Below are positions 3,094 to 22,424 of a DNA stretch of 64,000 nucleotides, piece by piece. This DNA comes from Bacillota bacterium (lineage in GTDB: Bacteria > Pseudomonadota > Gammaproteobacteria > Natronospirales > REEB76). The first letter of the stretch is position 1. Each line of letters starts with the position of its first letter. The translations under genes were made by a program, and so were the position numbers. The stretch lies in the NCBI GenBank assembly GCA_050261675.1, contig JBLNDO010000023.1, forward strand, positions 74,261 through 138,260, written 5' to 3'. The notes beneath the pieces are model-generated. The model had not been told where the DNA came from and made no database searches. It saw nothing but the letters and a program-made list of their open reading frames with translations.

Positions 3094-5832
3094 TTACGGT
3101 GTGCAGGCTGAATTGGCGTTGATAGTGAGATTACCCTGGTACGCCAAGCCGTCCGGCATTTCGTCGACCGTCTCGGCGACGCCCCCCAAGGGGGTACTCA
3201 CCGACTGAACTACGCCGGAATTGAAGCCGCCGAAAGCCTGCCCCGGGCTCAGGCCGAGGTCCGCGAGGGGAACGGTGGTCACGATGATCCCGTCCGCGGA
3301 GTCGTAGAAACTGGAGGGGTCCGCCGGCTTCTCGCTCCCGGCGAGCACGAAACGCCCGTCCACGCCGCCGCTGCTGTTGGGCGCGGCGATGTAGGACTCG
3401 AAGCTCGGCGTCAGCGCACCCACCGGGTAGAACATGCGCACGCCGTGAACCTTGCCGTCCGGCTCCTTGAAGGACACGTACCAATAGGAGTCAGGCGGTT
3501 GCGTGGACTGCCCCGGGTCGGTGTTAACCTGGAAGCGCAGCTTCACGTTGCCGTCTGCGGCGAAGGGTTGTGCGAGCTCGAAGGACTGAAGGTCCGTGCC
3601 GGGCGTGCCCGTCAGGCTGTCGCCGGTCGCGTCCGTAAGGATCGTCGGCCCAGGCGGCGTGCAGGGATTCGCCGCAAGCGTGACCGCGAGCGCTATTTCG
3701 TTGCTGGCGGGACCCGTACCCTGCCCGTTGACCGCCCGGACAACGTAGAAGTATTGCCCCACGGAGGATTTCACTTTCGTATCCACGAAAGCGGTCTTGC
3801 TGCCGCTCACGGTGGCCAGTTTCTTCTCCGCCCCGGCGGACGTACCGCGCAGGATCACGTAGGCGCTGATGGAGGAGCCGCCGTTGTCCGGAGGAGTCCA
3901 GTTGAGGTTGGCCTGCGTCGCGGAACGCGTGCCCTGCAGGTACGGGGCTTGGGGCACGGCGGGCTCCACCGGGTCGAACTGTGACAGGAGCGTCTTGCCC
4001 CCCGTCTGGCGCGCCACCCGCTGGAAAGCCACGAAATCGTTCTTCGTGGGATCCGCGATGCAGGTCGCGGTGACGCAGCCGTCGTCGTAGCCGAAGAGCA
4101 CCCGGCCGTGATCGTCCATGGTCACTTCGTTGAAGTCCAGGAGGTTGCGGTTCGGTTCGTTGCCGCCGCTGTTCCAGATGCCGCCCGCCCCCTGCACGGG
4201 ATCATTCGGGGAAGCGTTCACTGTGGTCCAGGTCTTGCCGGAGTCGTAGGTGGTGGCGATGAAGAGGTACCAGAAACCCGGGTAGTCCAGCGATTCATGA
4301 TCGCCGCCGGCATCGCTGCCGAGAAAGCCGCAGGCAGCGCGTCCGGCGGAGCCGGCCACCGCCTCCGGGAACACCGCCATGATCACACCCACCGCAAGCC
4401 CGAGGTCCGTGTCGTTGCTCCAGGTGGCGCCGTGATCATGGCTCACCGCCGCATGCACATGATGCTCCGCGCCTTGCCCGTCCACGTAGCAGTAATAGAC
4501 CGCGTTGTCCTGACCGATGGCCATGGACGGATCCGTGGAACCGCCGCTGAAGGACTGGCTGTTGGGCACGGTGAAATTCGTCCAGGTGCTGCCCGCATCC
4601 AGGCTCACGGAGCCGCCTTGCACGGGGCCGCAGTCGGAAGCAGGAACGTACACTGCTCCGTCCGGGCCCACCTTGGCGTGGCCGTGCAGGCCGCCGCAGG
4701 CGGTGATGCCGTTGCCGAAGTAGATGGGTACGCCCGGGCCGAAGCTCGCGCCGCCGGAGTCGCTGCGTTGGCACATGGCCGGCCCGACCACGTCCTGGGA
4801 GCAGTAATAGACCGCGTTGGGGTAAAGCGGATTGGGCGCGGGCAGGAGTGAGGGATAGGGTCCGGCCACGATGGTTTCATGATCCGCGCCGCCGTTAGGC
4901 GGCGCGGCCGAGGCCTGGATCCAGCTCGTGCCGTCGTTGTCGGTGTAACCGAACAGAGCTTCCGCGCCGGTGGTCTGCATGGACTCGAAGCTGCGGCCCG
5001 CCGCCTGGTCCGTGAAGAGAATGGGGTCGAGGGTATCGGCGTTGATGATGCCCGGCGAGACGTCGGTCCACAGGGCCGGGCCTGCCATGGGCAACGGCGG
5101 GCTGCGGAGTTCGGGGGGCGTGAGCCGGAAGGTGTCGAGATCCGAGAGCGTCATGATGCTGTGGCTCTTGGGGTCGAAGCCGATGCTGAACTCGCCTGCG
5201 CTGCCCTGGGCGGCGGTGCCGGCCGGGGCGTAGAAGTTCTGGTAGCGGGGCACGCCGGGGGCGGTGGGCGTCGGCCCACCGAAGGCGGCTCCCCCGCCGC
5301 TCACCGGGCCCTGTATCAATTGGATGGTCACATGCACCGTCTCGCCGGTGGGCGTGAATGGCACCACGATGACCGTGAAGGTTTGGGTGCCGTTGAATGC
5401 CCGAATGGTGGTCACTTCGGGGTTCGCGGAACTCGCCGATTGTGCCTGGGCCGCTTCGGAGCCGTCGGTGGTGGTGACGCTGCCCGGATATATATAGAGA
5501 TCGTAGTCCGACGCGCCGGTACCGGAATCGGTCCACCCCAAAGAGAACTGAATCAGCATGCCAGGGTTGGTGGTGGTGAAATCCGAAGGCAGCGACACCG
5601 TGAGCGCGTACTCGTCACAGGGCTGTTGCGGGTTGTTGCACTCCGGCCCCGCGTCCACCAAGGGCACCGGCGTGGGGTTCGCCAGCGGGAAGGGTCCAGC
5701 TGTGTAGGTGAGCGGGCCGGAGGTGGCCGTAAGCGTACCGCTGGAGGGCGTGGCGGCTCTGATCCCACCCGCAACCGCTGCAAGCACGAAACCCAGGAAA
5801 ACAACGAGAATTTTCAGACTGCGACCTGACAT
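3094..5832 (-). CDS. Secreted BNR/Asp-box (sialidase-like beta-propeller) protein with FN3-like domain
   Basis: 912-aa ORF with a signal peptide (KILVVFLGFVLAAVAGG). Four Asp-box motifs are present (DNDGTSW, SLDAGSTWT, SHDHGATWS, TYDSGKTWT), plus an FN3-like segment (LNWTPPDNGGSSISAYVILRG...YFYVVRAVNGQG). Confidence 0.7.
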   Translation of the reverse strand: MSGRSLKILVVFLGFVLAAVAGGIRAATPSSGTLTATSGPLTYTAGPFPLANPTPVPLVDAGPECNNPQQPCDEYALTVSLPSDFTTTNPGMLIQFSLGWTDSGTGASDYDLYIYPGSVTTTDGSEAAQAQSASSANPEVTTIRAFNGTQTFTVIVVPFTPTGETVHVTIQLIQGPVSGGGAAFGGPTPTAPGVPRYQNFYAPAGTAAQGSAGEFSIGFDPKSHSIMTLSDLDTFRLTPPELRSPPLPMAGPALWTDVSPGIINADTLDPILFTDQAAGRSFESMQTTGAEALFGYTDNDGTSWIQASAAPPNGGADHETIVAGPYPSLLPAPNPLYPNAVYYCSQDVVGPAMCQRSDSGGASFGPGVPIYFGNGITACGGLHGHAKVGPDGAVYVPASDCGPVQGGSVSLDAGSTWTNFTVPNSQSFSGGSTDPSMAIGQDNAVYYCYVDGQGAEHHVHAAVSHDHGATWSNDTDLGLAVGVIMAVFPEAVAGSAGRAACGFLGSDAGGDHESLDYPGFWYLFIATTYDSGKTWTTVNASPNDPVQGAGGIWNSGGNEPNRNLLDFNEVTMDDHGRVLFGYDDGCVTATCIADPTKNDFVAFQRVARQTGGKTLLSQFDPVEPAVPQAPYLQGTRSATQANLNWTPPDNGGSSISAYVILRGTSAGAEKKLATVSGSKTAFVDTKVKSSVGQYFYVVRAVNGQGTGPASNEIALAVTLAANPCTPPGPTILTDATGDSLTGTPGTDLQSFELAQPFAADGNVKLRFQVNTDPGQSTQPPDSYWYVSFKEPDGKVHGVRMFYPVGALTPSFESYIAAPNSSGGVDGRFVLAGSEKPADPSSFYDSADGIIVTTVPLADLGLSPGQAFGGFNSGVVQSVSTPLGGVAETVDEMPDGLAYQGNLTINANSACTP

Positions 5833-6206
5833 GGCTGCTCACCCCGGCGTGCGTGTGTCGGGTACCCACCCGAATGCAAGTCACGCTAGGCCCGTAGTCG
5901 CATAGCCTCAATGAGGGAAACTCCTCATTTGGAACACAGAGATTCCCATGCCCGTTATGTCAAAGAATAACACCGCAATCCACGTCGTTGCGTACGCGCG
6001 GGCTTCGGCGTGCCCGCTCTCATGAGGAGGCCACAACGGTAAAATCAGGTGATTTCCTAATTACAAAACTGCCCGCGCGACCGCACACTTCGCGCAGGTC
6101 GTGTACCCCTCACGACCCGGGGTTAATGCTCCCCATTGACCCCATCGGTCAGGACGCAACATCCTGGCTCCAAACCGGATGAACTCCCTATCATCCGATT
6201 TGACTG

Positions 6207-6243
6207 GAAGCGCCTCTTTTGACGTAAGAGGCGCTTCTTTTTT
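6207..6243 (+). terminator. Rho-independent terminator (plus strand) inside the divergent intergenic region
   Basis: Perfect 12-bp stem gaagcgcctctt / aagaggcgcttc with loop ttgacgt, followed by TTTTTT (6238-6243). On the minus strand no T-run follows the hairpin. Confidence 0.6.
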
Positions 6244-6351
6244 GCCTGCAAGCCTAATGACTTGATGCCCGCGCATGACATATCCGGGCCGTTCACACCG
6301 CGTGCATTTCATCCTGGCGAATATCCGCCTCCATTCAGGGTAATCCCGCAA

Positions 6352-6372
6352 GTGATTCACGTAATCACCTGC
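6352..6372 (+). promoter_or_regulatory. Candidate operator/activator box GTGATTCACGTAATCACCTGC (inverted repeat GTGATT-N5-AATCAC)
   Basis: Matches the box at 10240-10260 in 20 of 21 positions. Lies 185 bp upstream of the 6557 start and abuts a -35-like TTGCCC (6373-6378), a 16-nt spacer and a -10-like TATCTT (6395-6400). Confidence 0.5.
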
Positions 6373-6556
6373 TTGCCCAGAATTCGAACGCGCGTATCTT
6401 TGAAAATACGGCCTATAAACCGCATCAGCGTCCGCAAAACCCTTCGTCGATATCACAAATGACATTGACGGATCCTGCGTCTTGCGTGCATCAGGGCGTT
6501 TGCGCGATGTCGCCATTGGCCCATGACCAGGAATTCCGAGTTAGGGAGGGCGAGCC

Positions 6557-9538
6557 ATGACCCGAGATAGCCTGACAAATCGTTTCAAGATCGCAGCCTC
6601 GGCTGCTCTTGCATTTACAGTTCTCGGCCTGGCCGGATGCCCGTCCGGATCCATGAGTCCCTCTTCACCGACCCAAGCGGACCGGTTCCCCGCGGCGATG
6701 GTGAGTTCCACCGTCGATTCCGGACTCATACTTACCATCGGCATTCCCAAAGGAGACATCGCCAAGCCGGATGGCAACCCCGTCATCCTCAGCACCGTGC
6801 CGGGAAGCGCCTCCACCCCGGCGCACGGTTACGCGCGCGTGGAGCAGGACAACCCCGCCGTGACCTACACCGGCAACTGGGTGGCCACCACTTCCCCCAC
6901 GGATTATTCCGGCGGCAGTGCGGCGGAATCGGTCAACGCCGGAGATGAATTCCACTATAACTTCACCGGCACGGCGGTACGCTGGGTCGGCTATCGCGGA
7001 ACGGACACAGGCATGGCCGATGTGTATATCGACGGCCTGATGGTCGGTAGCGTGGATACCTACAGCACCGCGCCTTATCCCCATGCAATGCTATTCACCG
7101 CTACTGGCCTCACCCCCGGCGGACATACCCTGACGGTGCAGGTGGAGGGCCTGCACAATTCTGCCTCGACGGGTTCAGCCGTCTGGGTGGATGCCCTCGA
7201 CGTGTCCGGACAGCCGGCGGCAACCTCTGCCAGCGTCATGCCCGAGTCCACGGGCAGCACCGTGACCACGCGCATCCAAGAGGATGATCCCGCCATCTCC
7301 TACAGCGGATCCTGGAGCAGCGAGTCGTCCGGGCTCCTGGGGCTGCCGCCGCAATACAGCGGCGGGTCGGCAGCGGTATCGTCGTCCGGCGGCTCCCAGG
7401 CCATCCTCACCTTCATCGGCACGGGTGTCAGCTGGATCGGCTACAAGGACACCCTCTCAGGCATCGCCGACGTGATCCTCGACGGCAGCCCCGTCGCCAC
7501 CGTGGACAGCTACGACACCTTGCCGGCTTCCCAGGCGACGCTCTACTCCGTCTCGGGCCTGACCAACGCGCGCCACAGCCTGACCATTCGGGTCACGGGC
7601 GGTCACAGCCTGCTTTCGCTGGGTTCGAACGTGACGGTGGACGCGTTCGACGTGCAGGCGCCACCTCCGGATACCACGCCGCCCACGGTGAGCATGACCG
7701 CGCCTGTGAACGGTGCAACCGTATCTAAAACCATCACCATCTCGGCGACCGCCTCCGACAACGTGGGCGTTACGAGCGTGCAATTCGAACTGGACGGCGC
7801 CGCCCTCGGCGGCAAACTGAGTTCCGCCCCCTATTCCATCTCCTGGGACAGCACGGCGGTCGCGAACGGCAGCCATACGCTGGCCGCCGTGGCCAGCGAC
7901 GCGGCCGGCAATCATTCCACGGCAACGCCGGTCACGGTGGAGGTGGCCAACCAGACCCAGCCGCCGCCCGACACCACGCCGCCCACGGTCAGCATGACCG
8001 CACCGGTCAACGGCGCCACGGTCTCCGGCACGGTCACCGTCTCCGCCGATGCCTCCGATAACGTGGGGGTGGCGGGCGTGCAGTTCCTGCTGGATGGCGC
8101 CGCCCTCGGCACCGAGGACACGAATGCGCCCTATTCGGTTTCCTGGAACACCGTCAATGTGCCGAACGGCACCCACCGGCTCAGCGCCATGGCCCGCGAT
8201 GCCTCGGGCAACACGAGCACCTCGGCCGCCGTGACCGTGACGGTAAGCAACGGCCCGCCGCCCGATACCACGCCGCCCGCGGTGAACATGACCGCACCGG
8301 CCAACGGTGCGACGGTCTCGGGCAACGTCACCGTGTCCGCCAACGCCTCGGATAACGTGGGGGTGGCGGGTGTGCAGTTCGAACTGGACGGGGCCGCCCT
8401 GGGCGCGGAAGTCACGAGCGCGCCTTACTCCATCTCCTGGAACAGCACCAGCGTCGCCAACGGCAGCCACAGCCTGACCGCCGTGGCCCGGGATGCGGCC
8501 GGTAACCACACGACCGCGACGCCGGTGAATGTCACCGTCAGCAACCAGAGCCAGCCGCCGCCTGACACCACGCCGCCCACGGTCTCCATGACTGCTCCGG
8601 CGAACGGCGCCACGGTCTCCGGCAACGTCACCGTGTCCGCCAACGCCTCGGACAACGTGGGCGTGGTAGGTGTGCAGTTCAAACTGGACGGCGCAAACCT
8701 GGGACCTGAGGACACCAGCGCGCCCTATTCCATCACCTGGAACAGCGCCGGCGCCAGCAACGGCAGCCACAGCCTGACCGCCGTGGCCCGGGACGCCGCC
8801 GGCAACAAGACCACCGCCACGTCCGTGACCGTCACGGTCTCCAACAGCAGCGGCGACACCACGCCGCCCACGGTGAGCATCACGGCACCCGCCAGCGGCT
8901 CCACCGTCACGGGCACTGTGACCGTCTCGGCCACCGCCTCCGACAATGTGGGGGTCGCGGGGGTGCAGTTCATGTTGGACGGCGCGGCCCTGGGCGCCGA
9001 GGACACCACCGCGCCCTATTCGGTCTCATGGAATACCACGAGCGCCAGCAACGGCGGCCACACACTCACGGCGGTTGCCCGCGACGCCGCCGGCAACCAT
9101 ACCACCTCCTCGCCGGTAAGCGTGACGGTGTCCAACAGCGGCGGCGGGGGAACCACCACCCGCATCGAACAGGACAATCCGGCGGTGGCGTACACGGGCA
9201 CCTGGGTCACCGCCAGCGACTCGAGCGTCAGCGGCGGCACCGCCACGGAATCGAACCAGGCGAACGCCACGGCGACGCTGACATTCAGCGGCACGGGCGT
9301 CACCTGGATCGGCTACAAGTGCGGCTGCGCAGCCGGCATCGCGGACGTATCGGTGGATGGCGGCGCGCCTACCCAGGTGGACAATTATTCGGCGACCACC
9401 GAGCCACAGGCGAAAGTGTTCAGCGTGAGCAATCTGCCGAAGGGTACCCACACCCTGAAGATCACTGTCACCGGCACCTTCGACCGTAACGGCAGCACGG
9501 CCTACGTGGTGGTGGACGCCTTCGACGTCACGGATTGA
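6557..9538 (+). CDS. Surface lipoprotein: 2 lectin-like modules + 5 Ig-like (Big_7-like) repeats + 1 lectin-like module
   Basis: 993-aa ORF with a lipobox (LGLAG|C). It has three copies of a ~125-aa module (R-[VI]-[EQ]-x-D-[ND]-P-A-[VI]-x-Y-[ST]-G-x-W ... SGG[ST]A ... F-x-G-T-[GA]-V-x-W-[IV]-G-Y ... D-V-x-[IVL]-D-G ... H-[ST]-L-[TK]-I ... V-D-A-[FL]-D-V). It also has five ~98-aa repeats (TTPPTVSxTAP..GATVSG.VTVSA.ASDNVGV.GVQF.LDG..LG...APYS..W.....NG.H.L.A.A.D.AGN). Confidence 0.85.
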   Translation: MTRDSLTNRFKIAASAALAFTVLGLAGCPSGSMSPSSPTQADRFPAAMVSSTVDSGLILTIGIPKGDIAKPDGNPVILSTVPGSASTPAHGYARVEQDNPAVTYTGNWVATTSPTDYSGGSAAESVNAGDEFHYNFTGTAVRWVGYRGTDTGMADVYIDGLMVGSVDTYSTAPYPHAMLFTATGLTPGGHTLTVQVEGLHNSASTGSAVWVDALDVSGQPAATSASVMPESTGSTVTTRIQEDDPAISYSGSWSSESSGLLGLPPQYSGGSAAVSSSGGSQAILTFIGTGVSWIGYKDTLSGIADVILDGSPVATVDSYDTLPASQATLYSVSGLTNARHSLTIRVTGGHSLLSLGSNVTVDAFDVQAPPPDTTPPTVSMTAPVNGATVSKTITISATASDNVGVTSVQFELDGAALGGKLSSAPYSISWDSTAVANGSHTLAAVASDAAGNHSTATPVTVEVANQTQPPPDTTPPTVSMTAPVNGATVSGTVTVSADASDNVGVAGVQFLLDGAALGTEDTNAPYSVSWNTVNVPNGTHRLSAMARDASGNTSTSAAVTVTVSNGPPPDTTPPAVNMTAPANGATVSGNVTVSANASDNVGVAGVQFELDGAALGAEVTSAPYSISWNSTSVANGSHSLTAVARDAAGNHTTATPVNVTVSNQSQPPPDTTPPTVSMTAPANGATVSGNVTVSANASDNVGVVGVQFKLDGANLGPEDTSAPYSITWNSAGASNGSHSLTAVARDAAGNKTTATSVTVTVSNSSGDTTPPTVSITAPASGSTVTGTVTVSATASDNVGVAGVQFMLDGAALGAEDTTAPYSVSWNTTSASNGGHTLTAVARDAAGNHTTSSPVSVTVSNSGGGGTTTRIEQDNPAVAYTGTWVTASDSSVSGGTATESNQANATATLTFSGTGVTWIGYKCGCAAGIADVSVDGGAPTQVDNYSATTEPQAKVFSVSNLPKGTHTLKITVTGTFDRNGSTAYVVVDAFDVTD
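7661..9140 (+). repeat. Five in-frame tandem DNA repeats (periods 300, 294, 300, 291 bp) encoding the Ig-like domains
   Basis: Repeat starts read at 7661, 7961, 8255, 8555 and ~8852 (cc[ag]cc[tg]cc.ga[tc]accacgccgccc[ag]cggt...). Long near-identical stretches are shared between copies. Confidence 0.9.
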
Positions 9539-9565
9539 AACAGTAAGCCAGCAAAGGAGCAGCTC

Positions 9566-10048
9566 ATGAAAAGAATCACCGCTCGCAGCATACGAAACAG
9601 CCTGGCGGGAATGATTTCAACGGTCACTCTGTTGCTCTGCCTAGGCACCGATGCCCAAGCTGCCGGCAGTCGCGTCGAAGACGGGGATATATCCATCGTC
9701 TACGGGGGCATCTGGTACACCGCCAGTTCGTCCGAACTGAGCGGCGGCTCCGGGCATGAATCCAATACCGTCGGATCCACGGCCTCGCTGGTATTCACCG
9801 GCACCGGCGTCACCTGGATCAGTTACACCTGTGCCTGCGAAGCGGGTATCTCAAACGTGTATATCGATGGCAAGTTTGCCGCCAGCGTGGATACTTATTC
9901 GCCCACGCCCCAGGCCCAGGTGCCCGTGTTTACGGCGAGCAATCTCACGCCGGGCGTGCACATCCTGACCATTGAAGTGACCGGCAAATTCGATCCGCGC
10001 GGTCAGACGGCCTATGTCATGATCGATGCTTTCGATGTCGTCGATTAG
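9566..10048 (+). CDS. Secreted single-module protein (one copy of the lectin-like module, CxC subtype)
   Basis: 160-aa ORF 27 nt downstream of the 993-aa gene. Signal peptide with AQA|AG cleavage site. The module reads RVEDGDISIVYGGIWY...SGGSGHES...FTGTGVTWISYTCACEAGISNVYIDG...HILTIEVTG...IDAFDVVD. Confidence 0.8.
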   Translation: MKRITARSIRNSLAGMISTVTLLLCLGTDAQAAGSRVEDGDISIVYGGIWYTASSSELSGGSGHESNTVGSTASLVFTGTGVTWISYTCACEAGISNVYIDGKFAASVDTYSPTPQAQVPVFTASNLTPGVHILTIEVTGKFDPRGQTAYVMIDAFDVVD

Positions 10049-10239
10049 CGGACCATCGATCACAATTTAAATAAAGGCGAGGCGTTATTCGCTTTGGGCA
10101 ATGTTCGAGGCGAATAGCACCGAGCTGCTTGTGCCTGCGTGAAAATCACCGCAGGTAAATCATTGACCCCCGCTTAGATCCCCCCGATTCGTGTATCAAA
10201 ACCCCCATAAATTTGCATTGCCTCAGGCTTATCCATCGG

Positions 10240-10260
10240 GTGATTCACGGAATCACCTGC
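10240..10260 (+). promoter_or_regulatory. Candidate operator/activator box GTGATTCACGGAATCACCTGC (second copy)
   Basis: Matches 6352-6372 in 20 of 21 positions. Lies 152 bp upstream of the 10412 start. A TTGCAA -35-like hexamer follows 4 nt downstream, and an AT-rich -10-like stretch (ttttatatg) lies 17-19 nt further on. Confidence 0.5.
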
Positions 10261-10411
10261 GTGTTTGCAAATGGTTTGGATGTAAATTTTATATGACTTT
10301 GATGAGTCGGTTTTGTAAACCGAAAACGATTCCAACTCATAGGTTGGAATGCCCCTGTAATGGGCTCTAATGCGTGCGCGCTCCTTAAGAGAGCGCATTT
10401 AGGAGCGCGGG

Positions 10412-11572
10412 ATGGAAATCACATATAGTAAGTGGCACCAGCGGCGACGCATGGCGTTTGCGTTTATATGGGTTATGGCAACCGGAGCCATCGCCGCTCC
10501 GCCGCCGCCAGGCTATACCCGTGTCGAGGAAACCGATGCCGCCGTCCAGTATTCAGGCACCTGGCAGAGCGCCGCGGACAGCAGCTACAGTGGGGGCACC
10601 GCGACGTACTCAACCCAGGTGGGAGCCACAGCGCAGTTGAGCTTCAGCGGTACCGCCGTGCAGTGGATCGGAGAACGCGGTCCCCACACGGGCCAGGCTC
10701 AGGTGTTCCTGGACGGCATCCACGTGGCCGACGTCAATACCGCCTCCAAACAGACCACGAGCCAGGCGGTACTTTACGTCGCAAGCGGCCTCACCCAAGC
10801 GAGCCATACGCTCACCATCCAGGTGAAGAAGATACAGAGCGCACCTCCCGGCCAACTGCAAGGCGTCTGGGTGGACGCCTTCGACGTGCTCCCGATTTCC
10901 ACCGATACCACTCCACCCACCGCCACCCTCACCGCGCCAACCGACGGCCGCACCATCTCGGGAACCGTGACCGTATCGGCGAACGCCTCGGACAACGTTG
11001 GGGTGACGAGCGTTCAGTTCGAGTTGGATAACGCCCCGCTGGGGGCGCCCGACACCACGGCCCCCTATTCCATCTCCTGGAGCACTACTGCCGTGTCCAA
11101 TGGTTCCCACACCCTAGTCGCGGTGGCGCGGGATGCCGCCGGTAACATCGGCACCTCCCAACCCGTGACCGTCACCGTGAACAACAGCGTGACGCGCATC
11201 GAACAGGACAACCCGGCGGTGGCCTACACCGGCGTTTGGGTTACCGCCAGCGATCCTACGGTGAGCGGCGGCACAGCCGCCGAATCCAACCAGGCCAACG
11301 CCACCGTAACCCTGACCTTCAAGGGCACCGGCGTCACCTGGATTGGCTACAAGTGTACCTGCGCCTCGGGCTATGCCGACGTGTCGGTGGATGGCGGCCC
11401 CGCGACACAGGTGGACGGTTATTCCGCGACGACGGAGCCCCAGGCACCCATGTTTACCGCCAGCAACCTTCTTGAGGGCACCCATACCCTCGTCATCACC
11501 GTGACAGGCCAATACGACCGTCAAGGCGATACCGCCTACGTCGTGGTAGATGCCTTCGATGTGACGCCTTGA
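10412..11572 (+). CDS. Secreted protein: lectin-like module + one Ig-like repeat + lectin-like module (CxC subtype)
   Basis: 386-aa ORF with a signal peptide (MAFAFIWVMATGAIA|AP). By my count its C-terminal module is ~82% identical (103/126) to the C-terminal module of the 993-aa protein. Confidence 0.85.
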   Translation: MEITYSKWHQRRRMAFAFIWVMATGAIAAPPPPGYTRVEETDAAVQYSGTWQSAADSSYSGGTATYSTQVGATAQLSFSGTAVQWIGERGPHTGQAQVFLDGIHVADVNTASKQTTSQAVLYVASGLTQASHTLTIQVKKIQSAPPGQLQGVWVDAFDVLPISTDTTPPTATLTAPTDGRTISGTVTVSANASDNVGVTSVQFELDNAPLGAPDTTAPYSISWSTTAVSNGSHTLVAVARDAAGNIGTSQPVTVTVNNSVTRIEQDNPAVAYTGVWVTASDPTVSGGTAAESNQANATVTLTFKGTGVTWIGYKCTCASGYADVSVDGGPATQVDGYSATTEPQAPMFTASNLLEGTHTLVITVTGQYDRQGDTAYVVVDAFDVTP

Positions 11573-11659
11573 GGCGCGTATATCAGGTCATTACCGGCAA
11601 GCGATTCCGGGGTTCACCCGATTCCTCGGAATTATCCCGCTGAACTATCCTCAGGGTTA

Positions 11660-12472
11660 TTGCACGGAACCCGGCGCCACCGGTTCCTGGCCGCTCCGTC
11701 GCCAACCCCGGGCCCGGAGAGCGAAGTGGACCCTCAAAGCCTATCCCGCACGTTGCCAGCGACGTTCAAAGCCCTGATCGCCACCGATGACGACGCGCTG
11801 ACGAGCGTCGAAAGCTCGGCGCTCAAGCAGTTGAACTTCGACACCGTCACCGCGCACGACAACGGCGAGATGCTGAATACCGTCAAGGAAGAGAAACCCG
11901 ATCTGGTGATTTTGGATGCGGCCCTCCCCGGGGGTGGGATCGATGCATGCCGCAAACTGCGCGAGGATCCCAACACCGCGGAAATTCCCATCATCATGGT
12001 CACCTCGGCGGACAACAACACCGAGAAGGTCGAGGCATTGGAAACCGGCGCGGACGACTGCGTCACACGGCCGGTGCAGGTGGACGTGCTGGTCGCTCAC
12101 ATCAAGGCGGTGACCCGGCGCGCCCTGCCAGATCTCCCGAGCAACCGCCTGCGCGCGGGCCCCATCGAGATGGACCTGGACCGCTGGACCGTGAGCATCG
12201 GCGGACAGCCCCTGGAACTCACCAAGAAGGAATTCCGCCTGCTGCAGGTGCTGCTGGAGGCGAAGGGCCGCGCCCTTACCCGCGATTTCCTGCTCCAGAA
12301 GGCCTGGTCCCACGCCACCATCCACGGGCTCGATACCCGCACCGTGGACGTCCACATCGGCCGGCTGCGGCGAAAACTGGGCAGCGCGGGCCAGTACATC
12401 ATCACCGTTCGCAACGTCGGCTTCCGCTTCGACATCCTTCCGGACTGGATAACGAGTTATCACTCGCCGTGA
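11660..12472 (+). CDS. OmpR/PhoB-family response regulator (REC + winged helix), no adjacent kinase
   Basis: Receiver motifs (ATDDD, DLVILDAALPG, IIMVTS) and a wHTH (LTKKEFRLLQVLL...VDVHIGRLRRKL...ITVRNVGFRF). The start codon is uncertain: TTG at 11660 gives a ~35-aa non-conserved leader. Confidence 0.8.
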   Translation: MHGTRRHRFLAAPSPTPGPESEVDPQSLSRTLPATFKALIATDDDALTSVESSALKQLNFDTVTAHDNGEMLNTVKEEKPDLVILDAALPGGGIDACRKLREDPNTAEIPIIMVTSADNNTEKVEALETGADDCVTRPVQVDVLVAHIKAVTRRALPDLPSNRLRAGPIEMDLDRWTVSIGGQPLELTKKEFRLLQVLLEAKGRALTRDFLLQKAWSHATIHGLDTRTVDVHIGRLRRKLGSAGQYIITVRNVGFRFDILPDWITSYHSP

Positions 12473-12819
12473 TGATCCTTTAAGTCCACGTCGGAGACGT
12501 GGGGTCTTTATGTGCGCCATTTTCGGGTATTTACCCGATACCTATGCGGCCCCGGGCCCCCGTAGAGTTTACTTAACTCGGGTACACGCCCGACTATTGT
12601 CTATTGACATATGACGGGGCAGGCGCCGGGCATGTGAACTATCATTGCGGATACTGCTTGTCGCGTTTTGATGCCCTGGGGTCTGCGCGGCTGCGGGGAA
12701 ACGGCAATGACGCAATGTCCGCCGCCTGCACCACCCAATGACCGCCACCGGGTTCGCCCCTTGAACCCAATTGCCATTGACGCACCCGCCCGCCGGGGAG
12801 ACGAACGAGGAGCAGCACG

Positions 12820-15199: not shown

Positions 15200-16141
15200 A
15201 TGCGCGACCCAGCCTCCCTCGATCTCGCAGGAATGTACAGGCAGGCACTCAAGCAATACCTGGCGAACGGCGGCGAAGCTCCGCTCCACCAGGCCTATGA
15301 GCTGGGACGGCAGGCGCTGGATTCCGGCATCGGCTTGCTCGGCCTGGTGAACATCCACCAGGAGGCGACGGCCAGCATGCTCAAGGATGCGAATGGAGAC
15401 GCCCTGCGCCGCTTTCGCGACGCCCACCACTTCCTGCTGGAAAGCATGGCGCCCTTCGAGATGATGCAGGTCGGCAACCGGGAATCTAACGCCGCGCTGC
15501 GCCGCCTGAACGCCATCCTGGAAGAGGAAGCGAAACGCATCGCCCACATCCTGCACGACGAGGCGGCGCAGCTGCTCGCCTCGGTATACCTCGAGCTCGC
15601 CGAGATACTCCGCGAGACGCCCCCGGCGCAGATCCGCTCCCACGTGGAGCGCATCACCTCCCACCTCGACCAGGTGCGCGAGCAGCTGCGGCGGCTCTCC
15701 CACGAGCTGCGTCCGCCCATATTGGACCAATTGGGCCTGTTGCCGGCGCTCCAGTTCCTGGCCGACGGCTTCCGCAAACGGAACAATCTCCAGGTCGAAC
15801 TGGAGAACGGCGTCACGGTCGATGGCCGACTGCCCCAGGGCATCGAAACCGCGCTCTACCGCGCCGTGCAGGAGGCACTCACCAACGTGGTTCGCCATGC
15901 CAATGCCCGTTGCGCCTGGATACGGGTATGGACCAACAAGGGAACCGTCTATTGCACCGTGCGGGACGACGGCGTCGGTTTTACACCCGCTACCGAAGGC
16001 GCCGACGTGCGCCCCCGGGGGCTGGGCCTGCTAGGCATACAGGAGCGCATCGGCAGCCTGCACGGCAACTTCAACGTGACCTCCATGCCCGGCGCAGGCA
16101 CGGAGCTTTACATCGGCATCCCACTTGGAGGCAACGTATGA
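15200..16141 (+). CDS. Cytoplasmic HisKA_3/HATPase histidine kinase with an RsbU_N-like N-terminal domain
   Basis: 313-aa ORF with no TM segment. It has the H box (AHILHDEAAQLL), N box (QEALTNVVRHA), G1 (DDGVGF) and G2 (GLGLLGIQER). The N-terminal ~90 aa (YRQALKQYLANGGEAPLHQAYELGRQALDSGIGLLGLVNIHQEA) resembles, from memory, the RsbT-docking N domain of RsbU. Confidence 0.8.
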   Translation: MRDPASLDLAGMYRQALKQYLANGGEAPLHQAYELGRQALDSGIGLLGLVNIHQEATASMLKDANGDALRRFRDAHHFLLESMAPFEMMQVGNRESNAALRRLNAILEEEAKRIAHILHDEAAQLLASVYLELAEILRETPPAQIRSHVERITSHLDQVREQLRRLSHELRPPILDQLGLLPALQFLADGFRKRNNLQVELENGVTVDGRLPQGIETALYRAVQEALTNVVRHANARCAWIRVWTNKGTVYCTVRDDGVGFTPATEGADVRPRGLGLLGIQERIGSLHGNFNVTSMPGAGTELYIGIPLGGNV

Positions 16142-16773
16142 TGACGCAAACCATACTACTAGCCGACGACCACTTCGTGTTCCAACAGGGCCTGAAGGCC
16201 CTATTGGAACGCGAGGGCTTCGATGTAGTGGCGGAAACCAAGGACGGCCACGAGGCGGTGCGCCTCAGCCGCCAACTCAGCCCCGATGTGGCGGTGCTCG
16301 ACATCGGCATGCCGCTCCTGAACGGCATCGACGCCGCCCGCCAGATCCTCAAGCAGAGCCCCGGCACCCAGGTGGTAGTGCTCACCATGTACGAGGAGGA
16401 TGCCTACGTGCTGGAAGCCCTGCGGGCCGGCATCCGCGGCTACGTGCTCAAGGCCCAGGCGGCGGCGGACCTGGTGGCCGCCATCCGCGAGGTATCGCGC
16501 GGGGCGGTGTACCTCAGCCCGGGCGTCTCCAAGACGGTGGTGGACGCCTACATGGGCAAATCCGAGCTGCCGCTCGACCCCCTCACCGACCGCGAGCGCC
16601 AGGTGCTGCAATTGGTGGCGGAAGGCAAGACCACGAAGGCGGTCGCCGACATCCTGGGCCTGAGCGTCAAGACCGCGGACTCACACCGCACCCGCATCAT
16701 GCAGAAGCTGGAAATCCACGAGACCGCGAGCTTGGTCCGCTATGCGATCCGCCGGGGGTTCATCAAGCCATGA
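16138..16773 (+). CDS. NarL/FixJ (LuxR-HTH) response regulator, copy 1
   Basis: ATG at 16138 overlaps the kinase stop (ATGA). Receiver domain (LLADDH, DVAVLDIGMP) plus a LuxR HTH (LTDRERQVLQLVAEGKTTKAVADILGLSVKTADSHRTRIMQKL). The ORF-track extension back to 15910 lies inside the kinase gene. Confidence 0.9.
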   Translation: MMTQTILLADDHFVFQQGLKALLEREGFDVVAETKDGHEAVRLSRQLSPDVAVLDIGMPLLNGIDAARQILKQSPGTQVVVLTMYEEDAYVLEALRAGIRGYVLKAQAAADLVAAIREVSRGAVYLSPGVSKTVVDAYMGKSELPLDPLTDRERQVLQLVAEGKTTKAVADILGLSVKTADSHRTRIMQKLEIHETASLVRYAIRRGFIKP

Positions 16774-17356: not shown

Positions 17357-17566
17357 TCACCGCTGTTCCCGTACGGGTATTCTCCCGATGGACTCTAAGG
17401 TTCCGCCCCGCCGGAAATACGCGTATTAACACGCCGAACTAAGGTGCTTGATTCACGATTTGCAGGTATTTACTCGATTCCTCGCATGGGGGCATTACCC
17501 CATAGTTTTCCGAAGCGCGTATCGTTTTCACGCGGAGTCGCCTTTTCTCCGCAGGAGACCAGACGG

Positions 17567-18196
17567 ATGCAGCGCATCTTGTTGGCTGACGATCACCCGA
17601 TGTTCCAGCAGGGGCTCAAGGCCCTGTTGGAACGCGAGGGCTTCGACGTGGTGGCGGAAGCCAAGGACGGCCACGAGGCAGTGCGCCTCGGGCGCCAACT
17701 CAGCCCCGACGTGGCGGTATTGGACATCGGCATGCCGCTCCTGAACGGCATCGACGCCGCCCGCCAGATCCTCAAGCAGAGCCCCGGCACCCAGGTGGTG
17801 GTGCTCACCATGTACGAGGAGGAGGCCTACGTGCTGGAGGCCCTGCGGGCCGGCATCCGTGGCTACGTGCTCAAGGCCCAGGCGGCAGCCGACCTGGTGG
17901 CCGCCATTCGCGAGGTATCGCGCGGGGCGGTGTACCTCAGCCCGGGCATCTCCAAGACGGTAGTGGATGCCTACATGGGCAAATCCGAGCTGCCGCCCGA
18001 CCCCCTTACCGACCGCGAGCGCCAGGTGCTGCAGCTCATCGCCGAGGGGAAGACCACCAAGCAGATCGCGGAGATCCTGGGCCTGAGCGTCAAGACCGCG
18101 GACTCCCACCGCACCCGCATCATGCAGAAACTCGAGATCCACGAGACCGCGAGCCTGGTCCGCTACGCCGTGCGCAGGGGTTTCATCAAGGCCTAA
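17567..18196 (+). CDS. NarL/FixJ (LuxR-HTH) response regulator, copy 2 (near-duplicate of copy 1)
   Basis: ATG at 17567 (MQRILLADDH). I counted 13 differences in ~204 residues aligned to copy 1, with long identical DNA stretches (for example gacatcggcatgccgctcctgaacggcatcgacgccgcccgccagatcctcaagcagagccccggcacccaggtgg). Confidence 0.9.
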   Translation: MQRILLADDHPMFQQGLKALLEREGFDVVAEAKDGHEAVRLGRQLSPDVAVLDIGMPLLNGIDAARQILKQSPGTQVVVLTMYEEEAYVLEALRAGIRGYVLKAQAAADLVAAIREVSRGAVYLSPGISKTVVDAYMGKSELPPDPLTDRERQVLQLIAEGKTTKQIAEILGLSVKTADSHRTRIMQKLEIHETASLVRYAVRRGFIKA

Positions 18197-18199
18197 ACG

Positions 18200-18895
18200 A
18201 TGCCCTCCAGGATGGAACCACACATGAACAGCGCCTTGCAGATCCCGGCACCGGTCGGGCAACAACCGGTACGGATCCTATTGGCGGACGATCACAGCAT
18301 ATTCCGCCAGTGCCTGTGCATGCTGTTGGAACGGGAGGGGTTCGAAGTGGTGGGTCAAGCCTCCGGGGGACAGGAGGCGGTGGGACTGGCGCAATCGCTG
18401 CATCCGGACGTGGTCATCCTCGACTACAGCATGCCGGACATGAACGGCATCGACACCGCCCGCGCCATGCAGAAAGCGGTGCCCGGGGCCCAGACGATCC
18501 TGCTGACCGCCCAGGAGGACAATGCCAACGCCATCGAGGCCCTGCGCGCCGGCATGCACGGTTATATCTACAAGTCGCAGACCGCCGAGGAGCTGGTGGG
18601 GACGGTGCGGGAAGTCGCGGGAGGGGCCATCCATTTCAGTGCGCGGCTACCGCCCATGGCCATCGAGAGCTACATCACGCACATGGGCCGCGAGTCCGAC
18701 CCGCTGACCGAGCGGGAACGGCAGGTCCTGCGGATGATCGCCACCGGCAACACCACGCGGGCGATCGCGAAGGAACTCGGCCTGAGCGCCAAGACCGTGG
18801 AATCCCATCGCAGCCGCATCATGCACAAGCTGCATCTGCACCGGGCCGCCGAACTGATCCGCTACGCCATCCGCCGCCAGCTCATCACCCCTTAA
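18200..18895 (+). CDS. NarL/FixJ (LuxR-HTH) response regulator, copy 3 (divergent)
   Basis: Starts 4 nt after copy 2. Receiver domain (ILLADDH, DVVILDYSMPDMNG) and HTH (LTERERQVLRMIATGNTTRAIAKELGLSAKTVESHRSRIMHKL). Confidence 0.85.
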   Translation: MPSRMEPHMNSALQIPAPVGQQPVRILLADDHSIFRQCLCMLLEREGFEVVGQASGGQEAVGLAQSLHPDVVILDYSMPDMNGIDTARAMQKAVPGAQTILLTAQEDNANAIEALRAGMHGYIYKSQTAEELVGTVREVAGGAIHFSARLPPMAIESYITHMGRESDPLTERERQVLRMIATGNTTRAIAKELGLSAKTVESHRSRIMHKLHLHRAAELIRYAIRRQLITP

Positions 18896-19265
18896 AACTC
18901 TCCCTGCACAAAACCACCTCGCTGTCACTCAGGGAAACCCTGAGTCGCTAACAGAACGCAACGCACGCTTTGTGTGATGCGGCTCACACTATCTATTTCG
19001 TTTACTAACAGTTGGGGTTTTTTTTAGAGTTCCGTTACACACGGCAGGTATATCTGCACGTGCCGGTAAGGTGTCTACCGCAGGGTCTCTACCCGAAGGA
19101 AAGCACCCGAACGTCATGATGCGGGATATACGGGCAACCGCCCCGATTCACGTTGTGACATAACGGCACTGGATCCGCAGGGCGACGCAACACGCCTTCA
19201 TGCCCAGTGACCTCCGGCAAGCGCGCTCGCAAGAGCACCCGAGCAATGCCACTGAGGTTACGAGC

Positions 19266-22200
19266 ATGACAACGTGTATCAGCCCCTTCCGCCGGTTCAG
19301 CCGGCTTATCGCAATCGGCGCCCTGGCGCTTGCATCGCTGTTCGCCGCGAGAGCGGTCTGCGCGGATACCGCCACAGGCGGCTTCCTGGAAAGCGACGAG
19401 ACCTCCGTGGTCCGCGGCCTGCTGAGCCAAAGCACGATCAACGGTTTCCTGCCGCAGCGCGGCGCATTCACCTTCCCGGCGCCCTACAACACCCAGGGCA
19501 TCCGCGTCACCAACTCGAGCGACTGTGGCGGGCAGGATTGCGTGGACATGATCTACTCGTACTGGCGCAACATGAGCAACAGCGCGGGCAGCAACACCAT
19601 GTACATCTTCATCGGCCTGGACCGCAACCGCGGCGGCCAGGGCCCGACACTATTCAGCTACGACAAGAGCACCGGGCAGCTGACCGAGGTGGGCCCGCTG
19701 TTCGACTCTTCCAGCTCGTACAGCTGGAACAGCGGCGAGGGCTGGTACTTCAGCTACGGCATGCCCACCAAGATCTACATGCAGGACGGCTCGAAGCTGT
19801 TGCGCTACGACGTGCTGGCGCACACTTTCGAGACCGTGTTCGATTCAACCAGCCAATACCCGAACACGGTCATCCGGCAGACCAACTCCAGCAACAACGA
19901 TGACGTGCACTCCGCGACCCTGGAGGACGCCAGCACCTGGCAGCCCACGGCCTGCATCGCCTACAAGGCGAGCACGAATCAGTTCTTCTACTTCGCCGTC
20001 CAGGGCCACTTCGACGAATGCCAGATCGACAAGAGCGGCCGCTACCTCGAGATCAAGGAAAAGCTGCCCAGCGATCCCTGCTCGAGTTGCGACGAGGACG
20101 ACGTGATCGAGGACCTGCAGGCCGGCACCGAAAAGGTGCTCTACGACCAAGCCGGCGCCGGCGGCCATTCCGACCTCGGCTACGGCACCATGGTGGCGGT
20201 GGACAACTGGAACAACTACGCCAATGCCTGGCGCTTGTGGGACCTGTCCTCACCGTTTCCGACCGCGCAGGGACAAGGCGGCGCCACGAACCTGGGCTTC
20301 GCCCAAGGCGGCCTTGTTTACCACAACCTGAGCTGGAGCGCGTTCAACCCCTCGCACATCAGCTATGAGAACGCGAACACTTCCGCGCCCGTGAGCCAGC
20401 AGTACGCCTGCGGCGGCGCGGTGAACACGACCATTGTGCCCCAGTCCAATGACATCATCTGTTTCCTGCTCAACCCGGCAGTCCCGGCTTCGTCGGAGCA
20501 GGCTCTGATCGTTGCTCCGGTCATGACGGACATGAGCGCCAGCGGCGGCAGCGCCACCTGCCCGAGCTGCGTGGCCTACGGCCAGGATCCCAAGGGCAAC
20601 CTGGACCCCACCGGCCAGTACTTCTTCTGGGTCAGCAACATGGGCGGCAGCCGGATGGATGCCTTCATCGTGAAGGTCCCATACCAACTCCTGACCGGCT
20701 CCAGCGGCACCGGCGGCACGAGCGGCGGCACCACTGACACCACGCCTCCGACCGTTTCCATCTCCAGTCCGGCGGCAGGCGCGTCCCTGACCGGCAGCGT
20801 CACGGTTTCCGCGAACGCATCCGACAATATCGGCGTGGCGAGCGTGCAGTTCAAGCTGGACGGCGCCAACCTCGGCTCCGCCCTCACCCAGGCGCCTTAC
20901 AGCCTCTCTTGGGATACCACCGCCGTGGCCGCGGGCACGCACACCCTGACCGCGGTGGCGACCGACACCTCCGGGAACACCGCGACCTCCTCGTCGGTGT
21001 CCGTGACGACGGTGCTGCCGGTGTTCCCGCCGACGATCTCGAGCGTCGCTTCCTCCGTCACCGGCTCGTCAAGCGCGAGCGTCAGCTGGACCACCGATCA
21101 GGCCAGCAATTCGCAGGTGGCCTTCGGCACCACCACGGCCTACGGCACCACCACCACGCTCAACACAAGCATGGTGACCTCGCACTCCATGAGCCTCTCG
21201 GGCCTCGCCGCGAGCACCACGTACCACTACCAGGTGATTTCGGCGAACTCGTCAGGCCAGCAGTCGGTGTCCGCGGACTACACGTTCACCACCCAGGCGG
21301 GCGGCAGCACGACCCTGCCCTCGACCACCGCCAACTGGCACCTGAACGCCACCAGTGGCACCACCGCCATCGACAGCTCGGGTAACGATCACACCGGTAC
21401 CCTGGTCAACGGCCCGGCCTGGACCGCCGGCGTCGCAGGTAACGGTCTCGCGTTCAACGGCACGAACCAGTACGTGACGGCGGCGAGCAAAGGCCTGAAC
21501 CTGTATCCGCTCACCGTGTCCGCGTGGTTCAAAACCTCGTCCACCAGCGGCCTGCACGGGCTCGTGAACAAATACAACGTCAGCTCCATGAACGGCTATC
21601 AGGTGTTCATGAGCAACGGCAACCTGTGCGCCTGGTACTTCCGTGACAGCGCCGACTACGTCTGGGACGGCAGCGGGTGCACCCTGAACACGTCGGGCTA
21701 CGCGGACAACCAGTGGCACATGGTGACCTACACCGTGAATTCCGCCGGCGGCAAGCTCTACGTGGACGGCGTCCTCAAGGCGAGCCGCGCCTGGACAGGC
21801 GTGGCAGGCGCCACCACCTCCGGTGCGGCCCTCAGCATGGCCCGCTATCCCGGGGTCAGCTCGCCGTATCTCGCCGCCACCCTGGACGAGGTGCGCCTGT
21901 ACAACAGCGCCCTCTCAGCGTCCCAGGTCGCCGCCCTCTATGCGAGCTTCCCGCTGGTGATGCCGGTGGCCTGGACCAACCTGGTGAACCTGACGGCGAA
22001 CGGCGGCAGCCTGACGAAGACCGGCGGCTGTGACGGTTGCGAGGACGCCACCGCCAATTCCCAGCAGCAGATCGCCCTGGGCGCGAGCGGCTACTTCGAG
22101 TTCACCGCCTCCGAGACCAACACGCTGCGCTATGCGGGCCTCACGAGCACCAGCTCCGGCCCCGGCTCAAGCAACATCGGCTACGCCATCCGGCTGCAGA

Positions 22201-22424
22201 GCGGCGATGCGGCGGTCTACGAGGGCGGTATCTACAAGACTGACGTGAGCTTCTCCTCCGGCGACGTGTTCCGCATCGCCGTGGGCGCCGGCGTGGTCAA
22301 CTACTACAAAAATGGGACTGTGTTCTACACCAGCAACACTGCTCCATCTTCGGCCCTGATAGCCTCGGCGGTGATCTGTAACATCAACGGCACCATCACG
22401 AGCGCCGTGATCAAGACCCAGTAG
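19266..22424 (+). CDS. Secreted multidomain protein: unassigned ~480-aa N-domain + Ig-like repeat + FN3-like + LamG/concanavalin-like + C-terminal domain
   Basis: ATG 19266 follows GAGG and opens a signal peptide (RLIAIGALALASLFAARAVCA). It has one Big_7-like repeat (TTPPTVSISSPAAGASLTGSVTVSANASDNIGVASVQFKLDG...) and an FN3-like segment (ASVSWTTDQASNSQVAFGTT...YHYQV). A LamG-like segment follows (GNGLAFNGTNQYV...LTVSAWFK...LDEVRLYNSALSASQV). Confidence 0.85.
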   Translation: MTTCISPFRRFSRLIAIGALALASLFAARAVCADTATGGFLESDETSVVRGLLSQSTINGFLPQRGAFTFPAPYNTQGIRVTNSSDCGGQDCVDMIYSYWRNMSNSAGSNTMYIFIGLDRNRGGQGPTLFSYDKSTGQLTEVGPLFDSSSSYSWNSGEGWYFSYGMPTKIYMQDGSKLLRYDVLAHTFETVFDSTSQYPNTVIRQTNSSNNDDVHSATLEDASTWQPTACIAYKASTNQFFYFAVQGHFDECQIDKSGRYLEIKEKLPSDPCSSCDEDDVIEDLQAGTEKVLYDQAGAGGHSDLGYGTMVAVDNWNNYANAWRLWDLSSPFPTAQGQGGATNLGFAQGGLVYHNLSWSAFNPSHISYENANTSAPVSQQYACGGAVNTTIVPQSNDIICFLLNPAVPASSEQALIVAPVMTDMSASGGSATCPSCVAYGQDPKGNLDPTGQYFFWVSNMGGSRMDAFIVKVPYQLLTGSSGTGGTSGGTTDTTPPTVSISSPAAGASLTGSVTVSANASDNIGVASVQFKLDGANLGSALTQAPYSLSWDTTAVAAGTHTLTAVATDTSGNTATSSSVSVTTVLPVFPPTISSVASSVTGSSSASVSWTTDQASNSQVAFGTTTAYGTTTTLNTSMVTSHSMSLSGLAASTTYHYQVISANSSGQQSVSADYTFTTQAGGSTTLPSTTANWHLNATSGTTAIDSSGNDHTGTLVNGPAWTAGVAGNGLAFNGTNQYVTAASKGLNLYPLTVSAWFKTSSTSGLHGLVNKYNVSSMNGYQVFMSNGNLCAWYFRDSADYVWDGSGCTLNTSGYADNQWHMVTYTVNSAGGKLYVDGVLKASRAWTGVAGATTSGAALSMARYPGVSSPYLAATLDEVRLYNSALSASQVAALYASFPLVMPVAWTNLVNLTANGGSLTKTGGCDGCEDATANSQQQIALGASGYFEFTASETNTLRYAGLTSTSSGPGSSNIGYAIRLQSGDAAVYEGGIYKTDVSFSSGDVFRIAVGAGVVNYYKNGTVFYTSNTAPSSALIASAVICNINGTITSAVIKTQ

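Follow-up and report, generated by a model that had tools for sequence, protein, structure and literature searches.

A 21-bp palindromic box as a candidate activator site at the predicted promoters of two Ig-like protein genes next to a stressosome-like module

Introduction

The only in vivo work on Gram-negative stressosomes has been performed in Vibrio vulnificus (PMC10014275). In the locus of this bacterium, rsbR-rsbS-rsbT-rsbX are followed by a two-component module (PMC10014275; Pane-Farre et al. 2005 as cited there), and the output of the stressosome is thought to act on cyclic di-GMP (c-di-GMP) (PMC10014275). The targets of Gram-negative stressosomes are largely unknown. Here, we analyze a 64-kb stretch of contig JBLNDO010000023.1, the whole of which is referred to as the window, in which a 21-bp palindromic box occurs upstream of two genes for secreted immunoglobulin (Ig)-like proteins, BigA and BigB, in the vicinity of a stressosome-like module. 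Similar to the V. vulnificus locus, the stressosome genes are followed by genes for a sensor kinase and a response regulator instead of a sigma-B cascade. Unlike in V. vulnificus, the outputs are DNA-binding NarL-type regulators for which an operator and target genes can be proposed. We conclude, with moderate confidence, that the box is a cis-regulatory activator site for a local response regulator, located at the upstream edge of two predicted sigma-70-type promoters, those of the BigA operon and of BigB. Related metagenomic loci used in the comparisons are designated by L-numbers (L001, L002 and so on).

Results

The two copies of the box and the features adjoining them are the following.

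6339-6348, plus strand: upstream unit GGGTAATCCC of promoter A
6352-6372, plus strand: box A, GTGATTCACGTAATCACCTGC, at the upstream edge of the BigA operon promoter (operon 6557-10048)
6373-6400, plus strand: predicted promoter A, with -35 TTGCCC (6373-6378), a 16-nt spacer and -10 TATCTT (6395-6400)
6557-9538, plus strand: BigA, secreted Ig-like protein with five Big_7 domains
9566-10048, plus strand: 160-aa protein of no known family, between BigA and BigB
10240-10260, plus strand: box B, GTGATTCACGGAATCACCTGC, bordering the BigB promoter on its upstream side
10261-10288, plus strand: predicted promoter B, with -35 GTGTTT (10261-10266), a 16-nt spacer and -10 TAAATT (10283-10288)
10412-11572, plus strand: BigB, secreted Ig-like protein with one Big_7 domain

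The initial annotation had described two 21-mers differing at a single position and sharing a perfect GTGATT-N5-AATCAC inverted repeat, and both the sequences and the coordinates were confirmed. The consensus, GTGATTCACG[T/G]AATCACCTGC, has two exact occurrences in the window, both on the plus strand, and boxes A and B were the sole matches when up to 3 mismatches were permitted. No match was obtained in 100 dinucleotide-preserving shuffles of the window, giving a chance expectation of none. A metagenome scan (JGI collection) with the 19-mer core GATTCACGKAATCACCTGC matched 5 contigs, unrelated and mostly with coding contexts; no Big or stressosome gene was found near any of these matches, which are at the chance level. 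Thus, as far as the window and the JGI collection are concerned, the box is not a repetitive extragenic palindromic (REP)-like or otherwise dispersed repeat, since only two copies are present in 64 kb and the 5 metagenome matches are unrelated; a repeat of this kind, which had been named as an outcome incompatible with a regulatory role, is not what these data revealed. Exact and arm-based searches in 33 related loci detected similar dyads in L002 and L013 only, and the relatives retrieved with the 160-aa protein provided additional loci for the small RNA and the type-1 operator described below and no more copies of the palindromic box.

The GTGATT-N5-AATCAC repeat is perfect (6-5-6) in both boxes, and box B has a longer, likewise perfect dyad of 8-3-8, GGTGATTC-ACG-GAATCACC, spanning 10239-10257, so that both copies have the symmetry of a site of about 16 to 20 bp. 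The distance from the end of the box to the ATG is 184 nt for A (ATG at 6557) and 151 nt for B (ATG at 10412), within the previously indicated range of 150 to 185 bp. The flanks had been described as dissimilar, which holds only in part: the two regions are 80% identical along a segment of about 41 nt (6335-6375 versus 10223-10263, established via the identical locus L001). Within this segment, identity is 20/21 in the 21-mer and about 65% in the remainder. Separately, an imperfect hairpin, CCTGCGTGAAAATCACCGCAGG, is located between the gene for the 160-aa protein and box B (10130-10160); it holds a further AATCACC and a GTGA-AAA-TCAC mini-palindrome and is followed by no U-tract.

The two predicted promoters have the same layout, with the box directly adjoining a weak -35 hexamer, followed by N16 and a TAnnTT -10 hexamer. 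This agrees with the activator-type geometry proposed in the initial annotation, the boxes occupying the upstream edge of predicted sigma-70-like promoters. The additional claim that a TTGC-type -35 begins within 0 to 4 nt of each box held for box A, which is abutted by TTGCCC. For box B, the abutting GTGTTT is favored over TTTGCA/TTGCAA, less likely candidates 3 to 4 nt downstream, because the orthologous promoter of L035 has TTGTTC at this place. L035, in which the BigB-type protein is 72% identical, keeps GATTCACGGAATCACCTGC, TTGTTC, N16 and TAACTT at matching positions, and the block conserved between this promoter and that of the window runs from the box through the -10 hexamer. Promoter A is in register with the promoters of the RsbR operon and of the small RNA, which are supported by comparison among loci. 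Its transcription start is predicted near 6407. The predicted -35 and -10 hexamers, taken with the start deduced from sequence, place the 12 bp of the box proximal to the -35 at about -42.5 and the center of the whole dyad near -47, class II-type activator sites being centered at about -41.5 to -44.5. Because of their poor -35 hexamers, both promoters, predicted to be of the sigma-70 type, probably require an activator. A sigma-54 reading of the box region was discarded, since no GG-N10-GC was found in register.

In an ungapped alignment of ten BigA/BigB-type promoters with the -35 as the anchor, ATTC.CG...T.ACCTGC followed directly by TTG was common to at least 8, and box A has ungapped orthology to elements in the 9 related promoters. 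The window 21-mer is orthologous to CGAATTCCCGACTTTACCTGC (L043 and L036) and to GCAAATGCCGGGTTTACCCGC (L006), which are elements without dyad symmetry. Since the ten promoters have an ungapped motif in common, the 21-mer is the form taken in this lineage by an element conserved upstream of these promoters. Wide conservation is limited to the portion of the box next to the -35, and this core is presumably the functional one. Judging from the alignment, the palindrome is a lineage-specific feature overlaid on that element. Strong dyads are limited to a small clade with AATCACC, inside which their geometry varies as follows.

Window A: 5-nt spacer, predicted hairpin of -7.3 kcal/mol
Window B: 3-nt loop, predicted hairpin of -13.0 kcal/mol
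L002: same arms 17 nt apart, predicted hairpin of -18.7 kcal/mol
L035: a different 10-3-10 palindrome with its center 8 to 9 nt upstream, predicted hairpin of -12.0 kcal/mol

An extracytoplasmic function (ECF)-type -35/-10 reading of the element was also rejected, since no conserved hexamer occurs 16 to 17 nt after ACCYGC.

The regulators encoded downstream of the Big genes and the module that they accompany are the following.

11660-12472, plus strand: OmpR/PhoB-type response regulator, candidate ligand, followed by an RsbR/RsbS/RsbT/RsbX-like stressosome module (STAS, STAS, HATPase_c_2 and SpoIIE domains)
15200-16141, plus strand: RsbU_N-HisKA_3 histidine kinase
16138-16773, plus strand: RR1, NarL/FixJ-type regulator, candidate ligand
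17567-18196, plus strand: RR2, NarL/FixJ-type regulator, candidate ligand
18200-18895, plus strand: RR3, NarL/FixJ-type regulator, candidate ligand

An extra STAS protein is encoded among the three NarL/FixJ-type regulator genes. The start codon of the OmpR/PhoB-type gene is probably located 50 to 110 nt downstream of the TTG at 11660, since the predicted -10 (11646-11651) leaves 9 nt only and orthologues align from residues 18 to 37 onward.

A second element, the type-1 operator GGGTATTTACCCGAT (palindrome GGGTA-TT-TACCC(GAT)), recurs across the locus. Its end is always located 2 nt before a weak -35 hexamer, which is followed after 17 to 18 nt by a TAnnnT-like -10. Apart from the site of the small-RNA promoter (see below), the copies in the window are the following.

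11582-11596: second type-1-like site of the OmpR/PhoB-type gene promoter
11608-11622, plus strand: type-1-like operator CGGGGTTCACCCGAT of the OmpR/PhoB-type gene promoter, with -35 TTCCTC, N18 and -10 TATCCT (11646-11651)
12525-12539, plus strand: canonical operator, a perfect match to GGGTATTTACCCGAT, at the stressosome (RsbR) operon promoter, with -35 TACCTA (12539-12544), N18 and -10 TAGAGT (12563-12568)
17375-17389, 17464-17478 and 17489-17503, plus strand: cluster upstream of the second NarL-type gene (RR2)
19083-19097: site in the 5' region of the third Big gene
62165-62179, minus strand: operator GGGTATTTCCCCGAT (22 bits), 138 nt ahead of an exopolysaccharide (EPS) operon whose first gene is NusG/UpxY-like

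Orthologous type-1 sites were found in L002, L006, L010-L012, L016, L017, L021, L022, L024, L034, L036, L042, L043 and L045. The operator of the OmpR/PhoB-type gene is conserved in L010, L045, L046, L047 and L048. Upstream of RsbR orthologues, GGGTATTTACCCGAT-like sites occur at a fixed distance from the -10 in 6 loci, and in the promoters of L010, L011, L012, L022 and L034 the retained motif is followed, 22 to 23 nt downstream, by TA(A/G)(A/G)GT. Similar sites also precede the small RNA in 8 loci. In L021 and L024, the motif is present beside a kinase and NarL-type regulator pair, with no OmpR-type gene detectable there.

A position weight matrix (PWM) trained on the sites of relatives only was used to score 128,000 positions in the window. 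Sixteen sites reached at least 12 bits versus 1.8 expected, nearly all of them in promoter regions of the locus or at the EPS operon. The proximal 12-mer of box A (6359-6370) scored 10 to 12 bits, ranking 15th and 21st of the 128,000 positions, and box B scored 8.9 bits (rank 34). The upstream unit of promoter A, which is aligned with GGGGATTATCCCC-type palindromes in relatives, scored 7.1 bits on the minus strand. The -35-proximal 12 bp of the box, ACGTAATCACCT, are in the exact register of canonical operators relative to the -35, as shown by the comparison of ACGTAATCACCT-GC-TTGCCC (box) with GGGTATTTACCC-GA-TACCTA (RsbR) and GGGTATTTACCC-GC-TACGAA (small-RNA promoter of L002). The good half-sites of the box, GGTGA and TCACC, are 9 bp apart versus 2 bp in the canonical operator, and the proximal 12-mer contains one good half. 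The box is thus, by its sequence, not a canonical type-1 site, as it lacks a 12-bp palindrome with halves spaced by 2 bp. The 8-mer T[TC]ACC[CT]GC was about 2-fold enriched in crudely defined intergenic DNA, which is too noisy for diagnostic use.

The initial annotation had also assigned a degenerate copy of the box, at 6049-6064, to the BNR-gene side of the intergenic region. The copy exists; it belongs to the plus-strand promoter of a candidate small RNA and is not specific to the BNR gene.

6047-6061, plus strand: type-1 operator AGGTGATTTCCTAAT of the small-RNA promoter (PWM score of 14 bits), overlapping the degenerate copy
6096-6243, plus strand: candidate small RNA of about 148 nt with four stem-loops, C-rich loops (ACCCCU, CCCC and CUCCCU) and an intrinsic terminator (6206-6243)

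This assignment is based on the alignment of AGGTGATTTCCTAAT with the orthologous operators AGGTAATCACCCAAT (L042), AGGTCATCACCCAAT (L043), AGGTAATGACCCAAT (L045) and GGGTATTTACCCGCT (L002), each of which is followed by a -35, 16 to 17 nt and a CAnAnT -10 located 7 nt before a conserved hairpin. The small RNA was located in L002 (~5998-6150), L006 (~2556-2705), L010 (6078-6220), L036 (3583-3730), L042 (~6062-6212), L043 (~6478-6625) and L045 (~5457-5600), with a divergent gene (GT9 or BNR/fn3) on one side and Big or regulator genes on the other. RNAalifold analysis of a 5-locus alignment predicted 47 pairs, 21 of which displayed compensatory double changes. No Rfam family matched the small RNA or the box at the gathering threshold; the best match of a permissive search was MmgR/suhB (17.5 bits for a cut-off of 41), restricted to the last hairpin and terminator of the small RNA. 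A search for tRNA and tmRNA detected none. The C-rich loops resemble anti-Shine-Dalgarno sequences, and 7 nt of complementarity to the BigA ribosome-binding site are present in the window (CUCCCUA/UAGGGAG), with no comparable site in the BigA leader of L002; pairing between the two may be envisaged and is only a lead. A sigma-B-type reading, in which GGGTAT would act as a -10, was rejected: the first hairpin of the small RNA, preceded by the conserved CAnAnT 7 nt upstream, sets the start about 45 nt past GGGTAT, and no conservation is seen in between. On the other side of the intergenic region, palindrome-like sequences GGGTACCCACCCGAA and GGGTGGGTACCCGAC are found at 5857-5874, some 25 nt before the start codon (ATG) of the BNR/fn3 gene, as a weak operator match (7 to 8 bits).

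The remaining genes of the locus are the following.

3094-5832, minus strand: BNR/fn3 gene
19200-22424: third large Big gene (Big_7/LamG), after the regulators
23.9-62.0 kb, minus strand: EPS biosynthesis and export operon, headed by the NusG/UpxY-like antiterminator gene (61410-62027)
62405-63118: TetR gene, divergent from the EPS operon

The EPS operon encodes glycosyltransferases, two asparagine-synthase-like proteins, polysaccharide deacetylases and proteins of the heparinase II/III-like, sulfotransferase, Wzz/GNVR and UDP-glucose dehydrogenase types. The promoter of the third Big gene holds a conserved CRP/FNR-type box, TGTGA-N6-TCACA (GTGTGATGCGGCTCACAC), at ~18964-18981, which is followed by TTTACT-N18-TAGAGT and by more conserved blocks to ~19121, all of which are common to L002, L010 and L006.

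The gene arrangement is syntenic in more than 12 metagenomic loci, labeled mostly as uncultured Gammaproteobacteria. In L002, L006, L009-L013, L042, L043 and L045, synteny with Big genes extends to the kinase, the three NarL-type regulators and the OmpR-type regulator. Proteins P0001 and P0121 have identical counterparts at NCBI labeled 'MAG: Bacillota bacterium'. The syntenic relatives among genome representatives are all labeled Gammaproteobacteria or Pseudomonadota, and the window encodes a lipopolysaccharide (LPS) heptosyltransferase (1865-2899). The 'Bacillota' label is probably wrong.

Discussion

That the box serves activation rather than repression, and by which protein, is what we infer from the layout of the promoters and from the neighboring genes. 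The LuxR-type helix-turn-helix (HTH) regulators had been designated as the nearest candidates, and HTH response regulators are indeed co-conserved with the Big genes in more than 12 related loci; the adjacent OmpR/PhoB-type regulator is a further candidate ligand. Taking all data together, a NarL-type regulator is the favored binder, an OmpR-type regulator being possible, because the box of the window is dyad-symmetric and resembles a palindromic operator, and because this operator accompanies a kinase and NarL-type regulator pair in loci devoid of a detectable OmpR-type gene (L021 and L024). Several results weigh against the assignment of the box as the site of such a regulator. A strict sigma-70 consensus scan detected no promoter in the box region, as expected for activator-dependent promoters with weak -35 hexamers. 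The operator PWM gave the box 7 to 12 bits versus 18 to 26 bits for canonical sites, and, owing to the spacing of the half-sites, a dimer binding the box in the canonical manner could not contact both of its halves. The dyad is missing from 6 of the 10 orthologous promoters, and its spacing or center shifts among close relatives. Thus, these data do not establish the binding of a dimeric HTH protein to the exact palindrome, as initially proposed: the conserved motif persists in orthologues without symmetry, and in the closest relatives the arms are 17 nt apart (L002) or the center is shifted (L035). A related palindromic operator does occupy the same register relative to the -35. Finally, covariation does not identify the binder, since clades that differ in their box variants have the same recognition helices in each of the four regulators.

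The OmpR/PhoB-type regulator might bind the box as the second tier of a cascade in which the NarL-type regulators would bind GGGTA-TT-TACCC, including the copy at the promoter of the OmpR-type gene itself. We consider this arrangement unlikely, yet it has to be taken seriously for the motif class of the Big promoters, and a number of observations can be accounted for in this way. The element upstream of the Big genes, ATTC.CG...T.ACCTGC, is a distinct motif class that is asymmetric in most relatives and found at BigA/BigB promoters only, the OmpR-type gene is always directly downstream of Big genes with type-1-like operators in its promoter, and PhoB-type activators typically bind in place of the -35. 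A weak repeat of CCG...C(C/T)G with a 10-bp period is also detectable in the aligned promoters of relatives. However, the sole clear direct repeat in the window, GATTCACG/GAATCACC, has a period of 8 bp, whereas tandem dimers of winged-helix proteins need about 10 to 11 bp. The perfect dyads of boxes A and B are better suited to a symmetric HTH dimer, and L010 contains the OmpR-type gene but neither BigA nor BigB.

Two further readings dispense with a duplex operator of fixed spacing or with a function of the palindrome. In one of them, the symmetry would have no role: an ancestral, weakly symmetric element would have been perfected by template switching, quasi-palindrome correction being a known mutational process, and transferred between the two promoters through a duplication or gene conversion event, and nothing but the conserved proximal portion would matter. 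The 41-nt similarity suggests a common origin of the two regions, the BigB promoter of L035 resembles one of the A type (AGGCGAATTCCG...) lengthened by about 13 nt, and the dyad is lineage-restricted with a center that moves between close relatives. We nevertheless judge this origin very unlikely, since the drop in identity outside the 21-mer implies constraint on all of it, left arm included, and since ATCGGGTGA, to the left of the box B arm, is a perfect match to the left half of the locus operator. Least probable of all is a role of the dyad as a hairpin or cruciform, either in DNA or in an RNA started upstream. The four promoters of the AATCACC clade all have strong dyads despite their different geometries, and arms that persist at variable spacing are expected under selection for pairing. 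In contrast, the six orthologous promoters without the dyad have weak folds with unrelated pairs, the conserved columns are asymmetric, and the conserved -35 and -10 downstream make it improbable that transcription from these promoters includes the box. The absence of a U-tract or T-run after the stem, of pairing in the six relatives and of an Rfam match led us to reject an identity of the box as an intrinsic terminator or structured RNA.

If the box is an activator site, the stressosome (RsbR/S/T/X) may control the RsbU_N-domain histidine kinase, which would phosphorylate a NarL-type response regulator. The phosphorylated regulator, or the adjacent OmpR/PhoB-type regulator as a second tier, would then bind beside the -35 and recruit RNA polymerase, thereby turning on both the polysaccharide genes and the Ig-like proteins of the surface or matrix. 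More tentatively, and with a doubtful chance of being right as a whole, the box and the GGGTA-TT-TACCC operators might constitute the direct regulon of a Gram-negative stressosome acting through the RsbU_N kinase and the NarL-type regulators. The outputs would comprise the Ig-like proteins, the EPS operon of about 38 kb, autoregulation of the sensor genes and the new small RNA. The Big box, with half-sites spaced by 9 bp, would be read by another paralogue (RR3 or the OmpR-type regulator) than the operator with the 2-bp spacing, resulting in a two-tier cascade.

Taken alone, the box is a regulator site of an ordinary kind, close to a promoter, in a gammaproteobacterium of soil that has not been cultured. 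It is of value for the circuit to which it points, the putative regulon and the candidate small RNA being the more valuable leads. In this locus family, the module downstream of the stressosome ends in DNA-binding regulators, and the combination of a conserved operator with readable targets (Ig-like proteins, the EPS operon and the small RNA) renders the output of a stressosome directly testable without culturing.

Among known regulatory sites, the CRP/FNR box (TGTGA-N6-TCACA) also has GTGA...TCAC arms, which are 9 nt apart in the box (GTGA-N9-TCAC) rather than at the required N6, and a CRP/FNR site was rejected on this basis. The lux box, a LuxR-type class II activator site, is a 20-bp palindrome that is reportedly centered at about -42.5. 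The box likewise is a palindrome of about 19 to 21 bp abutting or overlapping a weak -35, regulators with a GerE-type HTH are encoded nearby, and recruitment of the polymerase would, by analogy, be the expected mechanism of activation. Unlike the lux system, the local regulators are phosphorylation-dependent response regulators and not acyl-homoserine-lactone receptors, the box dyad would be centered near -47 with only the proximal 12-mer near -42.5, and the sequence is unrelated to ACCTGTAGGATCGTACAGGT. NarL and NarP recognize TACYYMT heptamers, in 7-2-7 inverted pairs and in other arrangements. The half-sites of the locus operator are inverted relative to the 7-2-7 pairs, with the TAC ends inward, the halves of the box are TCACC and not TACCC, and no local regulator reaches the NarL or NarP equivalog cut-offs. 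Similar to NarL and NarP sites, however, GGGTA-TT-TACCC contains TACCC half-sites 2 bp apart, RR1 to RR3 match NarL-family profiles, and the tolerance of NarL for varied heptamer arrangements would fit the variable spacing observed at the boxes.

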